A stretch of 64,000 nucleotides of DNA. Origin: Escherichia coli O157:H7 (GTDB lineage: Bacteria > Pseudomonadota > Gammaproteobacteria > Enterobacterales > Enterobacteriaceae). The DNA lies in NCBI RefSeq assembly GCF_013167455.1, contig NZ_CP038328.1; one strand, written 5' to 3'. Position numbers and translations under genes: made by a program. Shown here piece by piece: positions 4,380 through 48,866 of the stretch; position 1 is the first letter of the stretch; each line of letters begins with the position of its first letter. The notes beneath the pieces were generated by a model, which made no database searches, had not been told where the DNA came from, and worked only from the letters and a program-made list of their open reading frames with translations.

Positions 4380-4805
4380 ATGAAACGGAACACGAAAATT
4401 GCCCTGGTAATGATGGCGCTTTCAGCAATGGCGATGGGATCGACATCTGCATTTGCTCACGGCGGACACGGTATGTGGCAGCAAAATGCCGCGCCTTTGA
4501 CCAGCGAACAACAGACAGCGTGGCAGAAAATCCATAATGACTTTTACGCTCAAAGCAGCGCACTGCAACAGCAACTGGTGACGAAGCGTTATGAATACAA
4601 TGCCCTGTTAGCCGCGAACCCACCGGATAGCAGCAAAATTAACGCGGTCGCCAAAGAGATGGAGAATTTGCGTCAGTCGTTAGATGAGTTACGGGTGAAA
4701 CGGGATATTGCGATGGCTGAAGCGGGTATTCCGCGCGGAGCCGGAATGGGCATGGGCTACGGCGGCTGCGGTGGTGGCGGTCATATGGGTATGGGCCACT
4801 GGTAA
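4380..4805 (+). CDS. zraP: periplasmic zinc-binding stress chaperone, 141 aa
   Basis: MKRNTKIALVMMALSAMAMGSTSAFA signal peptide starts at 4380; Gly/Met/His-rich C-terminus; the ORF-track start at 4239 is an upstream in-frame extension over the palindrome. Confidence 0.9.
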   Translation: MKRNTKIALVMMALSAMAMGSTSAFAHGGHGMWQQNAAPLTSEQQTAWQKIHNDFYAQSSALQQQLVTKRYEYNALLAANPPDSSKINAVAKEMENLRQSLDELRVKRDIAMAEAGIPRGAGMGMGYGGCGGGGHMGMGHW

Positions 4806-4806
4806 A

Positions 4807-5508
4807 TCAGAACGTTTTCTCGTTGGGTTGCCAGCGACAGAAATCAGAGTTTGCCACTAACAGTAATTGCGAACCTTCGGGCGCTTCCAGCCATGCCACG
4901 CTGACATCAACAGAAGAGCGGCTCTGGCGGCGCTCGATATGCGCTATTGCCTGCGAATCTAAATCAGGTTTAATGGTTTGCCCTTCGCAGGTGGTCACGG
5001 TCTGTTCCATCGCATGCCAGCGCCCCTGGCGCAGCACGACTCTCCCCTGACGTAAGGCATCGCTAATCTGGCGGATCTGATCAGCCCGATAACGGTATAA
5101 ATCGATTTGGTCGTTAGAAAGCTGCTGCTTTTCCCCATCGGATTCACGTTGCATAAAGCTCAGATCACCGCGATCGTCAAAACGCGCGCGAATATTCACC
5201 GGGGGTTTGCTGTAAACATTGATATTGATGAGCGTGAGGTTATCGCCCTGCCAGCGATACTCTCGCGTCGTGGTATCGCCACTGCGCCACGGGCTAAACA
5301 CGGCAAGAAAATGCACATTATCGCCGCTGTCTTTTCGCCAGATGCGTACCGCGCCCTGGTCTTCAGCAAATCCACTGGCGGTAAAGGGAGGAAGTGAAGA
5401 GTTGTGACTACAAGCAGTGAGAAACAGAGCGCCAGCCAGCATCAATGATCGACGCCAGAAAGACAAAAGGGGTGAAACCACCCCTTCGTTAAAACTGTTC
5501 ACTGCCAC
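4807..5508 (-). CDS. yjaH: DUF1481-family protein, probable lipoprotein (start codon uncertain)
   Basis: ORF track, 233 aa; position between zraP and hupA as in K-12; hydrophobic N-terminus ending ...LTACS. Confidence 0.8.
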   Translation of the reverse strand: MAVNSFNEGVVSPLLSFWRRSLMLAGALFLTACSHNSSLPPFTASGFAEDQGAVRIWRKDSGDNVHFLAVFSPWRSGDTTTREYRWQGDNLTLININVYSKPPVNIRARFDDRGDLSFMQRESDGEKQQLSNDQIDLYRYRADQIRQISDALRQGRVVLRQGRWHAMEQTVTTCEGQTIKPDLDSQAIAHIERRQSRSSVDVSVAWLEAPEGSQLLLVANSDFCRWQPNEKTF

Positions 5509-42357: not shown

Positions 42358-43458
42358 ATGACCCCCGAACACCTTCCAACAGAACAGTATGAAGCGCAGT
42401 TAGCCGAAAAAGTGGTACGTTTGCAAAGTATGATGGCACCGTTTTCTGACCTGGTTCCGGAAGTGTTTCGCTCGCCGGTCAGTCATTACCGGATGCGTGC
42501 GGAGTTCCGCATCTGGCACGATGGCGATGACCTGTACCACATCATTTTCGATCAACAAACCAAAAGCCGTATCCGGGTGGATAGCTTCCCCGCCGCCAGT
42601 GAACTCATCAACCAGTTGATGACGGCGATGATTGCGGGTGTGCGTAATAATCCCGTTCTGCGCCACAAGTTGTTCCAGATTGATTACCTCACCACGCTGA
42701 GTAATCAGGCGGTGGTTTCCCTGCTGTACCATAAAAAGCTGGATGATGAGTGGCGTCAGGAAGCGGAAGCCCTGCGCGATGCACTGCGCGCGCAGAATCT
42801 GAATGTGCATCTGATTGGTCGGGCAACGAAAACCAAAATCGCGCTGGATCAAGATTACATCGACGAGCGTCTGCCGGTCGCAGGGAAAGAGATGATCTAT
42901 CGTCAGGTAGAAAACAGCTTTACCCAGCCGAACGCGGCGATGAATATTCAGATGCTGGAATGGGCGCTGGACGTAACCAAAGGCTCAAAAGGCGATTTAC
43001 TGGAGCTGTACTGCGGCAACGGTAACTTCTCATTAGCGCTGGCGCGCAATTTTGATCGGGTATTAGCCACCGAAATCGCCAAGCCATCAGTCGCTGCCGC
43101 GCAATACAACATTGCCGCTAACCATATTGATAACGTACAAATTATTCGTATGGCGGCAGAAGAATTTACTCAGGCGATGAATGGCGTGCGCGAGTTTAAC
43201 CGCCTGCAAGGGATCGACTTAAAGAGTTATCAGTGCGAAACCATTTTTGTCGACCCACCTCGCAGCGGTCTGGACAGTGAAACCGAGAAAATGGTGCAGG
43301 CGTATCCACGTATTCTGTATATCTCCTGCAATCCGGAAACGTTATGCAAAAATCTGGAAACATTAAGCCAGACGCACAAGGTCGAACGTCTGGCTCTGTT
43401 TGATCAGTTCCCCTACACGCACCATATGGAGTGCGGCGTATTACTGACCGCGAAGTAA
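42358..43458 (+). CDS. trmA: tRNA (uracil54-C5)-methyltransferase, 366 aa
   Basis: ORF track; SAM-dependent methyltransferase with YCGNGNFS motif. Confidence 0.95.
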
Positions 43459-43497
43459 AACCCATGCCGGATGCGCCAGCATCCGGCATGATACCGA

Positions 43498-43857
43498 TTA
43501 CTCAGCAACTTCCTGCTTACGGTTACGCATCTTCGCGCCAATCCAGAACACCATAATGACGGAGAGTACTGCCGGGAAGAAGTTAGAGCCGATATCCGGA
43601 TATTCCGCACGAACTACCGTGCTGTACAGCAGTACGCCGAGAATAAAACAGGCAGCTGCCAGACCCGGCAAGCCTACCGGCATGGTGCGATTAAGATAAC
43701 GTTGATGCAGGCAGTAAACCGTCAGCACCAGGGAAATAATCGGGAATACAGAAAATGGCACAATGGAGCTAAACAGCGCTGCGAAAGTACCATTAATCGA
43801 TAAGCCAGCAACCAACGCCAGCAGCAGCGTACCTCTATCTTGATTTGCTTGTTTCAT
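43498..43857 (-). CDS. yijD: small inner-membrane protein, 119 aa
   Basis: ORF track; hydrophobic helices; start abuts the fabR stop. Confidence 0.9.
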
Positions 43858-44561
43858 TACTCGTCCTTCACATTTCCCGGAATAATTGCGGTTTTCTCTT
43901 GTTCACGGCGATACCAGTAATAAGCCCCTTTCGAAATCATTCGCAGTTGCAGTACCAGTCGCTCTTCTAATTGCCGACGTTGTTCAACGCCGACGTCCAA
44001 CGCCTCGGCACCCGCACTGAAGACAATTGTCACCATTGCTTCGGCTTGCGCTTCAGTAAACGCACGCGGCATATGGTTTTCGAGTTCCAGATAGTCCGCA
44101 AGTTCCGCAATGAAGTGCTGAATTTCACGCGCAACGGCGGCACGAAACGCAGCGGAGGTGCCGGAGCGTTCCCGCAATAATAACCGGAAGGCGTTAGGAT
44201 TATTACCGATGAACTCCATAAATGTGGAGACCGAGGTGCGGATCACACTCCCGCCTTTGGCGATACGCTGACGCGCCTGGCGCATGAGTTGGCGTAGCAT
44301 TAAACCGCTCTCATCAACCATGGTCAGACCCAGTTCGTCTACGTCTCGGAAATGCCGATAAAAAGAGGTGGGAGCAATGCCCGCTTCACGCGCCACTTCA
44401 CGCAAACTCAGGCTGGCGAAGCTGCGTTCAGCACTTAATTGGCTAAATGCGGCTTCCACCAGCGAACGGCGGGTTTTTTCTTTTTGTTGCGCTCTTACGC
44501 CCATCACGATGTCTGAATCCTTGCCAAAAGTACTGCTGGCACTATACCAGAGAATGAACAT
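43857..44561 (-). CDS. fabR: TetR-family repressor of unsaturated fatty-acid synthesis (start ambiguous: 44504, 44561 or 44600)
   Basis: ORF 43857..44600; Tet[23 protein letters not shown]; in-frame candidate starts MGVRAQ (44504) and MFILWY (44561). Confidence 0.88.
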
Positions 44562-44610
44562 ACTGGATTGCTCCAGTATTGTGAATGAACGGTAACGCAA
44601 TAAAACATAT

Positions 44611-45927
44611 TTACTGCAATTCTTTGGCCGGTTCTTTTACGTACAACAACGCCAACATCGACAGCAACGTGCCTCCACCCAGATACCACGCCGGAGCCGT
44701 CAAACTATCCAGCAACACGATGGATTGCGTAGCGAAATATTGAGCAAAACCGCCAAAGATTGCCACACCAATGCTATAAACCAGCGCAAAACCCAATGCC
44801 CGAATCCGTTTCGGCAACAGTTCAGAGATCAACAACATCACTGGCACACCGCCAAGCGTGGTAAAGCTGACCATCACGAAAACCACCGTCAGCAACATGC
44901 CTGGGCTTGGGTAATTCACCAACAGCCAGAATGACGGCCAGCTACAGATCAGCACCATCACACGGGAGATTAAAATCAGCTTTTTACGCCCGACCGAATC
45001 GCACAACATCCCCACCAGCAGCGCACCCACAAACGTAATAACGCCCGCCAGTAACATCGCTGCATGAGAATAGTTTTGGTTCATTCCTAAATACTTCGCC
45101 GCCCATGTACCGTAATAAAAGAGGGAGATATAGGTTGCGACTGTACTACCAATAGCGAGCAAGATACCGTTAGCGATAGTCGCTTTATGTTGCATAAGTA
45201 AGGAGAAGGCGCTTTCGCTGGCTGCGGCCTTCTTATTATGTGCTGGCTCAGGAACATCATTTTCCAGACTCAAACGCAACCAACAGCCGACAGGCGCTAA
45301 TAACACGCCAATAAAAAACGGCACACGCCAGCCCCATTCAGCCATGACGGTTTCTGAACCGGTCGCAAAGGGCAGCCATGCACTTAAACCTAAAGCGACA
45401 ACACCTCCAAAAGTTGTTGCCAGGCCTTGAGTCGCCAGTGACCAACTGCTGTAAAAACCGCGACGATTTGCCGGAGCTGATTCAACCAACAAAGACATTG
45501 AGGCACCGACTTCGCCTCCTGCCGCAACGCCCTGAATTAGACGCGCTAGCACCAGCGTCGCGGTTCCCCAATAGCCCGCCGTTTCATACGTCGGTGCGAT
45601 GCCGATCATCAGTGTACCAAGACTCATCAGCGCAATGGTGAACACCATCGCGGGTTTGCGTCCGAAACGATCGGCCCAGGCCCCCACAATAATGCCGCCG
45701 AGCGGGCGCATAAAAAAGCTCACGCCGAAAGTGGCAAACGCCAGCAGTAGCGCGACGTTTTTATCTGCACTGGGCGGAAAAAATAGCGTGCTGATATAGA
45801 CCACAAAAAAGTTGTAAACGCCAAAATCAAAAAATTCGAGCGCATTGCCAAACGCCGAGGCAAAAATCACCCGCCTGCCGCTGGGCTTTTTCTTCACACT
45901 CACGGTTTCATTTACGATCGCCGTCAT
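44611..45927 (-). CDS. MFS transporter, metabolite:H+ symporter (MHS) type, 438 aa; accessory
   Basis: ORF track; multiple TM helices; MFS signature [10 protein letters not shown] between TM2 and TM3; AAGGAA SD upstream; 42-bp gap from the upstream hydrolase gene. Confidence 0.85.
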
Positions 45928-45969
45928 TCCATGTTCCTTGCCAAAAAGTGTTGTTGTGTGTTGTTTTAT

Positions 45970-47136
45970 TTATTGCAGCCAGGCTTCTACCAGTGCGCCC
46001 CAGTAGCTGCTTGCCGGGACCAGACTTGCATCGTTGAAGTCGTAACCCGGGTTATGCACCATGCAGGAACCTTCCCCGACATCGCCATTACCGAATAACA
46101 GGAAACCGCCTTTGGGTTGGGCTTCCAGCATGAAAGAGAAATCTTCACTGCCCATCAGGGGCTTGATGCCAAACTCGGCCCGATCTTCACCAAACGTTTT
46201 ACACGCCACCTGCCAGGCGAAGCGCGCCATCTCCTCGTCATTTACTAATACTGGTGTACCGTTAACATGCGTAACCTCAGCCGTAGCGCCAAAGCTGGCA
46301 GCCTGGGCTTGTGCCAGAGCAGGAATACGGGTCAGAAGAAGTTGTCGGGTATCGCGGCTAAGAGAGCGGACGCTGATTTTCATCTCAGCACTGTCAGGAA
46401 TGACGTTAGCCGCCTCACCCGCAACAATGCTGCCGACGGTAATTACCGCCGCTTCCAGCGGATCGACATTGCGTGACACAATGCTTTGTAATGCGGTGGT
46501 GATATGTGCGGCAACTAGCACCGGATCGATGGCTTTGTGCGGGATCGCACCGTGTCCGCCACAACCACGAACTGTAATATGGAACTGATCCATTGACGCC
46601 ATCAGTGCCCCTGGCTGGAAATAAAACTTACCCACCGGCAGACCGGGCATGTTATGCATGCCGAAAATGACATCGCAGGGGAAATGATCAAAAAGCCCCT
46701 CTTTAACCATGATCTCACCGCCATTAATCATCTCTTCCGCAGGCTGGAAGATAAGACGTAACGTGCCGTTAAAACGGCGGGTTTCGGCAAAATAACGCGC
46801 GGCCCCCAGCAGTATGGTGGTATGCCCGTCATGCCCGCAGGCGTGCATTAAACCAGGATGTTTACTGGCCCAGGGCTTGCCACTATTTTCATAAATCGGC
46901 AGCGCATCCATATCCGCCCGCAGGCCAATACTTTTCTCTCCGTCGCCCACTTTTAACGTGGCCACTATCCCCGTCGTCGCCAGTCCTTGCTCTACTTCAT
47001 AGCCCCACTGACGCAGCTTTTCCGCAACCAAAGCACTGGTTTTAAATTCTTGTAATCCCAGCTCCGGGTTTTCGTGGATCTGATGGCGGATCTCACGCAG
47101 TTCTTCCTCAAACCCTCGAATATAGTGTTCGATCAT
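45970..47136 (-). CDS. M20D-family amidohydrolase (hippurate-hydrolase / N-acyl-amino-acid amidohydrolase-like), 388 aa; accessory
   Basis: ORF track; metal-binding motif ACGHDGH, QPAEE, GMHNMP; AAGGAA SD 6 nt upstream of the ATG. Confidence 0.85.
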   Translation of the reverse strand: MIEHYIRGFEEELREIRHQIHENPELGLQEFKTSALVAEKLRQWGYEVEQGLATTGIVATLKVGDGEKSIGLRADMDALPIYENSGKPWASKHPGLMHACGHDGHTTILLGAARYFAETRRFNGTLRLIFQPAEEMINGGEIMVKEGLFDHFPCDVIFGMHNMPGLPVGKFYFQPGALMASMDQFHITVRGCGGHGAIPHKAIDPVLVAAHITTALQSIVSRNVDPLEAAVITVGSIVAGEAANVIPDSAEMKISVRSLSRDTRQLLLTRIPALAQAQAASFGATAEVTHVNGTPVLVNDEEMARFAWQVACKTFGEDRAEFGIKPLMGSEDFSFMLEAQPKGGFLLFGNGDVGEGSCMVHNPGYDFNDASLVPASSYWGALVEAWLQ

Positions 47137-47465
47137 CGGCTATTCCTTTATTCACTTATAAACAGGCTAATTAACGGATTTTATTGATGGTGTAAATACA
47201 AATAACTCATCAATATAAAATATTTATATGTTTGTTTTATAAGAAGATTTCACAAAGACAATAACAAAAAAGCACGCTTCGGCAAGATAAAACTATCAGC
47301 CATAATAAAAAGCGATTAATAGTGAATAAATGGGTTAAGAAGGAGGCAGACAAAGCAAAGGCCGCTCACGCTATAGCCAGATTAATGACGGGGATCAATT
47401 GGCTTACCCGCGATAAAATGTTACCATTCTGTTGCTTTTATGTATAAGAACAGGTAAGCCCTACC

Positions 47466-48866
47466 ATGCCACATTCCTACGATTACGATGCCATAGTAAT
47501 AGGTTCCGGCCCCGGCGGCGAAGGCGCTGCAATGGGCCTGGTTAAGCAAGGTGCGCGCGTCGCAGTTATCGAGCGTTATCAAAATGTTGGCGGCGGTTGC
47601 ACCCACTGGGGCACCATCCCGTCGAAAGCTCTCCGTCACGCCGTCAGCCGCATTATAGAATTCAATCAAAACCCACTATACAGCGACCATTCCCGACTGC
47701 TCCGCTCTTCTTTTGCCGATATCCTTAACCATGCCGATAACGTGATTAATCAACAAACGCGCATGCGTCAGGGATTTTACGAACGTAATCACTGTGAAAT
47801 ATTGCAGGGGAACGCTCGCTTTGTTGACGAGCATACGTTGGCGCTGGATTGCCCGGACGGCAGCGTTGAAACACTAACCGCTGAAAAATTTGTTATTGCC
47901 TGCGGCTCTCGTCCATATCATCCAACAGATGTTGATTTCACCCATCCACGCATTTACGACAGCGACTCAATTCTCAGCATGCACCACGAACCGCGCCATG
48001 TACTTATCTATGGTGCTGGAGTGATCGGCTGTGAATATGCGTCGATCTTCCGCGGTATGGATGTAAAAGTGGATCTGATCAACACCCGCGATCGCCTGCT
48101 GGCATTTCTCGATCAAGAGATGTCAGATTCTCTCTCCTATCACTTCTGGAACAGTGGCGTAGTGATTCGTCACAACGAAGAGTACGAGAAGATCGAAGGC
48201 TGTGACGACGGTGTGATCATGCATCTGAAGTCGGGTAAAAAACTGAAAGCTGACTGCCTGCTCTATGCCAACGGTCGTACCGGTAATACCGATTCGCTGG
48301 CGTTACAGAACATTGGGCTGGAAACTGACAGTCGCGGACAGCTGAAGGTCAACAGCATGTATCAGACCGCACAGCCGCACGTTTACGCGGTGGGCGACGT
48401 GATTGGTTATCCGAGCCTGGCATCAGCGGCCTATGACCAGGGGCGCATTGCCGCGCAGGCGCTGGTAAAAGGCGAAGCCACCGCGCATCTGATTGAAGAT
48501 ATCCCTACCGGCATTTACACCATCCCGGAAATCAGCTCTGTGGGCAAAACCGAACAGCAGCTGACCGCGATGAAAGTGCCATATGAAGTGGGCCGCGCCC
48601 AGTTCAAACATCTGGCACGTGCACAAATCGTCGGCATGAACGTGGGCACGCTGAAAATTTTGTTCCATCGGGAAACAAAAGAGATTCTGGGCATTCACTG
48701 CTTTGGCGAGCGCGCTGCCGAAATTATTCATATCGGTCAGGCGATTATGGAACAGAAAGGTGGCGGCAACACTATTGAGTACTTCGTCAACACCACCTTT
48801 AACTACCCGACGATGGCGGAAGCCTATCGGGTAGCTGCGTTAAACGGTTTAAACCGCCTGTTTTAA
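47466..48866 (+). CDS. sthA: soluble pyridine nucleotide transhydrogenase, 466 aa
   Basis: ORF track; [27 protein letters not shown]-binding N-terminus. Confidence 0.96.

Follow-up and report, generated by a model that had tools for sequence, protein, structure and literature searches.

One of the closest described counterparts of the transporter-fabR junction of Escherichia coli O157:H7 is the sthA-fabR region of K-12, which spans 330 bp and carries the same conserved blocks, the same palindrome, and the same fabR-yijD operon as O157. However, K-12 has no co-oriented gene upstream of fabR, and read-through into fabR is therefore no issue in that strain. In other Enterobacteriaceae, such as Salmonella, Citrobacter, Klebsiella, and Enterobacter, sthA and fabR are divergent, and the TTCACA, the CTCTGGTATAGTGCCAG block, the leader, and the start are the same as in E. 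coli. Unlike in E. coli O157:H7, these genomes contain no module between the two genes, an inverted repeat (TTGTGCTT..AAGCACAA) is present, and the stretch that holds the palindrome in Escherichia is variable. The module, which consists of genes for an M20 aminoacylase and a transporter of the major facilitator superfamily (MFS), has a relative in Limnobaculum zhutongyuii (locus L087). The same two genes are found there in the same order, with an M20 protein of 388 aa and a transporter that is 78% identical and has a collinear C terminus, although the genomic context is unrelated to that of the Escherichia copy.

With regard to the promoter of fabR, the closest class is that of the extended −10 (TGn-TATAAT) sigma-70 promoters, which are established in E. 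coli. The fabR spacer resembles this class in that a TG stands one base before a TATAAT-like hexamer and that no usable −35 is found at 16 to 18 nt. It differs from the class in having a possible second promoter (TTCACA-17-TATGTT) just upstream.

Organization of the sthA-fabR locus in O157:H7

The window analyzed here is a stretch of 64,000 nt from the E. coli O157:H7 contig NZ_CP038328.1, and its segment 43400-47600 matches E. coli O157:H7 chromosomes with 100% identity. The genes on the minus strand are, in order, M20 aminoacylase, MFS metabolite:H+ symporter, fabR, and yijD; sthA (47466-48866) diverges upstream of the module, and trmA converges downstream of yijD. The first of the two module genes (47136-45970, minus strand) encodes an M20 aminoacylase/amidohydrolase of 388 aa, which matches TIGR01891 with 358.9 bits (cut-off, 153.75) and is named M20 aminoacylase family protein in RefSeq. 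Its stop codon is followed, after 42 nt without a terminator, by the gene for the MFS metabolite:H+ symporter (45927-44611, minus strand; 438 aa, TAA at 44613-44611). This protein is annotated as a "citrate-proton symporter," and its best NCBIfam matches (TIGR00883 and TcuC) are under their cut-offs. The module has a G+C content of 49 to 57%, like its flanks, and contains only the two metabolic genes, with neither mobility genes nor a regulator gene. The region 47137-47345, upstream of the M20 gene, is strongly A+T rich (~36% G+C versus ~52% in the flanks) and is presumed to hold the module promoter, for which no regulator was found.

The fabR coding sequence (44507-43857, minus strand) corresponds to 216 aa when read from GTG 44507 or to 215 aa when read from ATG 44504. 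FabR matches the TetR-family repressor model NF008402 with 413.6 bits (equivalog cut-off, 151). The start of yijD (43857-43498, minus strand) overlaps the stop of fabR, and yijD is followed by a terminator at 43491-43462 on the same strand, a strong hairpin with a 13-bp stem containing 8 G-C pairs (−25.1 kcal/mol, z = −4.69). No Rfam family was found at E ≤ 1 across 43300-47700. An identical 12-nt stretch, TTTTGGCAAGGA (minus strand), occurs at 44518-44529 and 45935-45946, the ribosome-binding regions of fabR and of the transporter gene. By chance, ~0.3 repeats of this length would be expected in 3 kb, and the C in the fabR copy is Escherichia specific; the shared stretch is probably a coincidence.

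The start codon of fabR and the gap to the transporter gene

The initial annotation described fabR as co-oriented with the cassette and separated from the transporter stop by 10 to 107 bp, depending on the start codon. Four in-frame start candidates are present on the minus strand: TTG 44600, ATG 44561 (the start of MFILWY), GTG 44507, and ATG 44504, which lie 10, 49, 103, and 106 nt past the transporter stop, respectively. Positions 1 to 206 of NF008402 align with residues 32 to 237 of the 247-aa fabR open reading frame, and the RefSeq start is GTG 44507, which gives 216 aa. The MFILWY frame of E. albertii contains a 1-nt insertion and as a result reads ATG TTC ATT CTT CTG GTA TAG. In other genera, single-base indels (TGG-AAGG versus TGGCAAGG) shift the frame upstream of the fabR start, C. 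youngae has an additional 6-nt deletion there, and Serratia keeps the ATG and lacks the GTG. The start of the family model, the RefSeq annotation, the indels, the TAG of E. albertii, and the ATG of Serratia together place the start of FabR at 44507 or 44504, which leaves a true gap of 103 to 106 nt after the transporter stop. The co-orientation and the short gap described earlier are in agreement with this result, whereas the range of 10 to 107 bp is not, since only 44507 and 44504 are supported. A long FabR isoform beginning at MFILWY was considered and rejected, given the E. albertii frame that runs into TAG, the indels elsewhere, and the family model that begins at residue 32. Neither the MFILWY codon nor TTG 44600 is a real fabR start, and annotations of a longer FabR, of 234 or 247 aa, are therefore without support.

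Palindrome and terminator-like sites in the spacer

A short palindrome, ACTGGA-gcaa-TCCAGT, had been noted immediately upstream of the MFILWY start. It is present at 44577-44562, and its arms extend to 8 bp (ATACTGGA-GCAA-TCCAGTAT, 44579-44560, minus strand), so that it overlaps the A and T of ATG 44561. It lies in the variable stretch between two conserved blocks that are described below. Folded as RNA, it forms an 8-bp stem with 3 G-C pairs and a GCAA loop (−10.7 kcal/mol, z = −4.25), and 0 of 200 shuffled sequences fold as well. A hairpin with 6-bp arms is not beyond chance (165 are present in the window versus ~96 in shuffles); hairpins with 8-bp arms are rarer, with 26 matches at ~14 sites versus 4.7 expected. 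The core of the palindrome is retained in the E. coli lineages and in the representatives of three other Escherichia species, and in E. albertii the stem has one mismatch that no compensating change restores.

The initial annotation had also seen no convincing terminator between the transporter gene and fabR, and our scan bears this out. A consensus scan of the transporter-fabR spacer found no canonical terminator and reported only two weak sites, namely, the palindrome with the tail GTTCATTCTC and a 6-bp hairpin in CTGGTATAGTGCCAG with the tail CAGTACTTTT. The number of terminator-like sites in the scanned 4.2-kb region is at chance level (9 versus 5.9 ± 2.6 expected). The tail of the palindrome hairpin, GUUCAUUCUC, contains no run of three or more U residues, by which a terminator would be recognized. 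The spacer shows no bias of C over G that would suggest Rho loading (21 C, 20 G). The published FabR core motif, ACAnnTGTnnnnT (PMC4804515), is not found upstream of fabR, and its two matches in the window are both inside sthA (47920-47937).

Conserved blocks of a probable promoter and putative leader upstream of fabR

We took 63 distinct sthA-fabR spacers from outside Escherichia and aligned the final 130 nt of each with the O157 sequence; two blocks stood out. Block 1 (CGTTACCGTTCATTCACAA, 44597-44579, minus strand) contains a −35-like TTCACA at 44585-44580; its consensus across the alignment is CGTAAACAATCATTCACAA, with a column conservation of 80 to 99%. Block 2 (TTCTCTGGTATAGTGCCAG, 44554-44536, minus strand), in which nearly all columns are at least 90% conserved, contains the extended −10 TGgTATAGT at 44549-44541. 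The TG of this element is at 44549-44548, and the hexamer TATAGT, at 44546-44541, fits TATAAT at 5 of 6 positions. The extended −10 sits ~35 nt upstream of the fabR GTG/ATG, and no recognizable −35 with a usable spacing (16 to 18 nt) accompanies it. Block 2 is followed by the putative 5′ leader of fabR (44535-44508, minus strand), with a Shine-Dalgarno sequence, AAGGA, at 44522-44518. The leader is conserved in the alignment as TGG(C)AAGGATTCAG...GTGATGGG, and transcription of fabR may start near 44534.

The promoter scan reported TTCACA-17-TATGTT, and a TAnnnT hexamer is found at the same spacing in several genera; a second promoter just upstream of the extended −10 is thus possible. Both candidate promoters lie beyond the transporter stop, and their sequences are the same in strains with the cassette and in strains without it. 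We suggest that the two conserved blocks are probably fabR's own promoter, the activity of the extended −10 being deduced from its conservation. In Pseudocitrobacter, ~125 nt is inserted between blocks 1 and 2, and block 2 still adjoins fabR. The insertion was seen in two Pseudocitrobacter loci (L048 and L056), where it separates TTCACA from the TGgTATAGT block; it may resemble an ERIC-like (enterobacterial repetitive intergenic) element. Reading TGGTATAG..GC as a sigma-54 element was rejected because neither Salmonella nor Citrobacter conserves the −12 GC. Our literature search found no report on the fabR promoter or on fabR autoregulation.

Comparison of O157 with K-12

The junctions of O157, O145, two B2-type alleles, and K-12 were aligned. 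From 44645 downstream, K-12 is 100% identical to O157; the identity covers the transporter tail, the entire spacer with its palindrome, and fabR. In the B2 allele, 1 nt of this region is different. The last 35 nt of the transporter open reading frame (44645-44611, minus strand) are therefore present verbatim in K-12 (positions 827 to 861 of its locus, L002). On the sthA side, the homology between O157 and K-12 runs to 47347, with 3 substitutions at 47362, 47350, and 47348. The variable segment in between (44646-47346, minus strand) is 2701 nt in O157 and is represented by a 73-nt filler in K-12-type genomes. The filler showed no detectable homology to the cassette or to any of the loci retrieved, and no convincing flanking direct repeats that would explain an insertion or excision were found.

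It had been proposed that the insertion replaced part of the native fabR promoter. Relative to K-12, this proposal is contradicted by the identity of K-12 from 44645 down and by the fact that both conserved blocks are intact and located downstream of the transporter stop. The suggested comparison of the fabR upstream sequence with that of K-12 thus gives identity throughout the spacer, and the difference, cassette versus filler, begins only further upstream.

The C terminus of the transporter is collinear with those of homologues from Limnobaculum, Pragia, and metagenomes, which end in VKEPRRELL, FKDPKRLEE, and similar sequences. Since this C terminus is native to the transporter family and since M20 and MFS genes form a unit in Limnobaculum, the 35 nt in K-12 is a relic of the gene, and K-12 has lost the module. 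On sequence comparison, K-12 is therefore a deletion derivative, and the direction of the event is opposite to an insertion in O157.

Distribution and history of the module

We scanned for the locus with FabR, using one genome per species, and mapped 80 loci by tblastn. The module is present at the same site in E. albertii and in three other non-coli Escherichia representatives (L007, L008, and L011). It is absent from sthA-fabR in the other sampled genera, which include Salmonella, Citrobacter, Klebsiella, Enterobacter, Kluyvera, Kosakonia, and Serratia, and in the non-Escherichia genera the sthA-fabR spacer is ~195 bp. The occupation of the same site across Escherichia and the absence from the other genera sampled indicate that an ancestor of the genus acquired the module and that part of the genus subsequently lost it.

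Compared with other Enterobacteriaceae, the Escherichia-specific insert spans 44598-47396 (minus strand), as delimited by tblastn, spacer lengths, and the alignment, and only 13 nt of insert-derived sequence (44610-44598) lies past the transporter stop. At the genus level, the original insertion replaced ~40 nt of the distal spacer, including a conserved inverted repeat, and altered block 1 at four positions of its left half. The inverted repeat, TTGTGCTTTTTTGCG..AAGCACAA, is seen in the distal ancestral spacer (at ~4870-4915 in loci L012, L034, L044, and others), and all Escherichia have the module or the scar in its place. This repeat could be a regulatory site shared by sthA and fabR.

Among 5426 complete E. 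coli genomes, the module is present in 1505, and the same scar, including the 73-nt filler, is present in 3918. The existence of one shared scar and two forms of the locus indicates that the loss of the module happened once. The module persists in ~28% of E. coli lineages, which comprise O157/O55, O145, B2, and others. In the five alleles inspected (O157, O145, 23CRST027, JJ1887, and RIVM_C036204), both genes are intact, and the gap to fabR is a constant 103 nt. The identity of the module alleles is at least 99% within O157/O55 and ~93.4 to 93.9% for B2 strains such as JJ1887, so that the E and B2 alleles have diverged by ~6.5%. A recent genomic island or mobile cassette was considered as an explanation and rejected, because the module has no mobility genes or flanking repeats, its G+C content is like that of the flanks, it occupies the same site in several Escherichia species, and its alleles have diverged by ~6.5%.

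Two further loci deserve mention. Positions 4760 to 5000 of L010 (NZ_JAATUR010000040.1), which is labelled E. coli SCPM-O-B-8794, contain a diverged copy of the deletion scar. The flanks of this locus are 90 to 95% identical to the window, which makes the strain effectively another Escherichia species, and the diverged scar allele has no match among the complete E. coli genomes. This suggests an old loss allele or one that has passed from one species to another. In L089 (NZ_CP050498.1, RM13322), ~1.1 kb of unannotated sequence with long G/C homopolymer-like runs (1636-2744) replaces fabR and the start of yijD, which is probably an assembly artefact.

Discussion

The initial annotation raised the possibility that transcription of the cassette adds to the expression of fabR. 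The co-orientation, the short gap, and the lack of a convincing terminator make read-through structurally possible. In Limnobaculum, the transporter gene is directly followed by a 12-bp G+C-rich stem and a T run (−22.7 kcal/mol, z = −4.0), whereas the Escherichia copy is without such an element. With the Escherichia module ending 13 nt past its stop codon and lacking a Limnobaculum-like terminator, read-through gains in plausibility. As judged from the arrangement of the genes, read-through from the cassette into fabR-yijD, ending at the yijD terminator, is structurally plausible.

The expression evidence found is indirect and comes from the Sakai strain, in which the O157-specific open reading frame ECs4893 rises 2.09 at the transition to stationary phase; fabR (yijC) is missing from the accompanying list of genes with a change of two-fold or more (PMC2241611). 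The gene order between argB and rplA points to ECs4893 being one of the two cassette genes. The absence of yijC from the changed genes argues, weakly, against a tight coupling of cassette and fabR. It can be proposed that induction of the module, for example, at entry into stationary phase, would drive extra transcription of fabR-yijD in the module-keeping E. coli lineages and in other Escherichia. FabR dosage, the repression of fabA and fabB, and membrane unsaturation would then be coupled to a nutrient signal, and this coupling would be absent from K-12-type strains. We regard this proposal as quite improbable.

Several other explanations for the junction have to be weighed. The palindrome hairpin at 44579-44560 might terminate or insulate the transporter transcript, leaving fabR transcriptionally independent of the cassette. 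The hairpin, with its 8 bp and GCAA loop, folds at −10.7 kcal/mol, better than any of the 200 shuffles, and is flagged by the terminator scan; its core is kept in the E. coli lineages and in three other Escherichia representatives, and fabR was not listed as changing when ECs4893 rose. However, only 3 of its 8 pairs are G-C, the tail has no U run, and the stem mismatch in E. albertii is uncompensated. Moreover, the hairpin is also found in K-12, where no upstream gene needs terminating, and it lies inside the putative TTCACA/TATGTT promoter. We consider a role in termination or insulation unlikely. The same dyad might instead be a protein operator, from which a transcription factor controls fabR within the TTCACA-17-TATGTT promoter spacer. 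Its perfect 20-bp dyad symmetry, its position exactly between the −35-like and −10-like hexamers, and the rarity by chance of dyads with 8-bp arms would fit such a role. Against this, genera other than Escherichia do not conserve the palindrome, and the copy in E. albertii is imperfect. The sequence bears no match to the published core motif of FabR (PMC4804515), no regulator gene is part of the module, and the literature search yielded nothing on fabR autoregulation. An operator at this position seems very improbable to us.

At the other extreme, M20, MFS, fabR, and yijD could form a four-gene operon in which the cassette promoter is a substantial source of FabR, resulting in a different set-point of lipid unsaturation in O157, B2, and other cassette lineages. 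This idea draws on the co-orientation of the genes, which are separated by 42 and 103 nt without a canonical terminator, on the lack in the module of the terminator that its Limnobaculum relative has, and on the stability of the arrangement, with a constant gap of 103 nt across alleles that have diverged by ~6.5%. Against it, the native promoter blocks are fully kept in the cassette lineages, which argues that fabR is not dependent on the cassette. In addition, biochemical work cited in PMC4804515 indicates that unsaturated thioester ligands strengthen the binding of FabR to its targets, and a FabR activity modulated by ligands may buffer modest changes in dosage. We regard a four-gene operon of this kind as quite improbable.

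We favor, with moderate confidence, the interpretation that 44504-44610 is fabR's own promoter and leader next to an old module without a terminator and that no junction was newly made here by an insertion in O157. The M20 and MFS genes entered the sthA-fabR spacer in an ancestor of Escherichia without a terminator of their own. A single later loss of the module, in the ancestor of K-12-type E. coli, left the 35-nt transporter relic and the 73-nt filler behind. In cassette-bearing strains, the only obstacle to a polymerase leaving the transporter gene would be a weak, AU-rich hairpin. Upon expression of the module, a degree of read-through into fabR-yijD would then be likely, and it may add to or interfere with the native promoter. 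Some points speak against the favored interpretation. The extended −10 is without a recognizable −35, and its activity is read from conservation; and the 8-bp hairpin, which is beyond chance (z = −4.25), could terminate or pause some of the transcripts.

The arrangement of cassette and fabR is ordinary and essentially known, and it suggests no new kind of element. What appeared to be an insertion in O157 is the ancestral state of Escherichia, whereas K-12 carries the deletion scar, and the fabR promoter is untouched in both. If read-through does occur, it would be a modest example of the lineage-specific rewiring of a core lipid regulator by an accessory operon.
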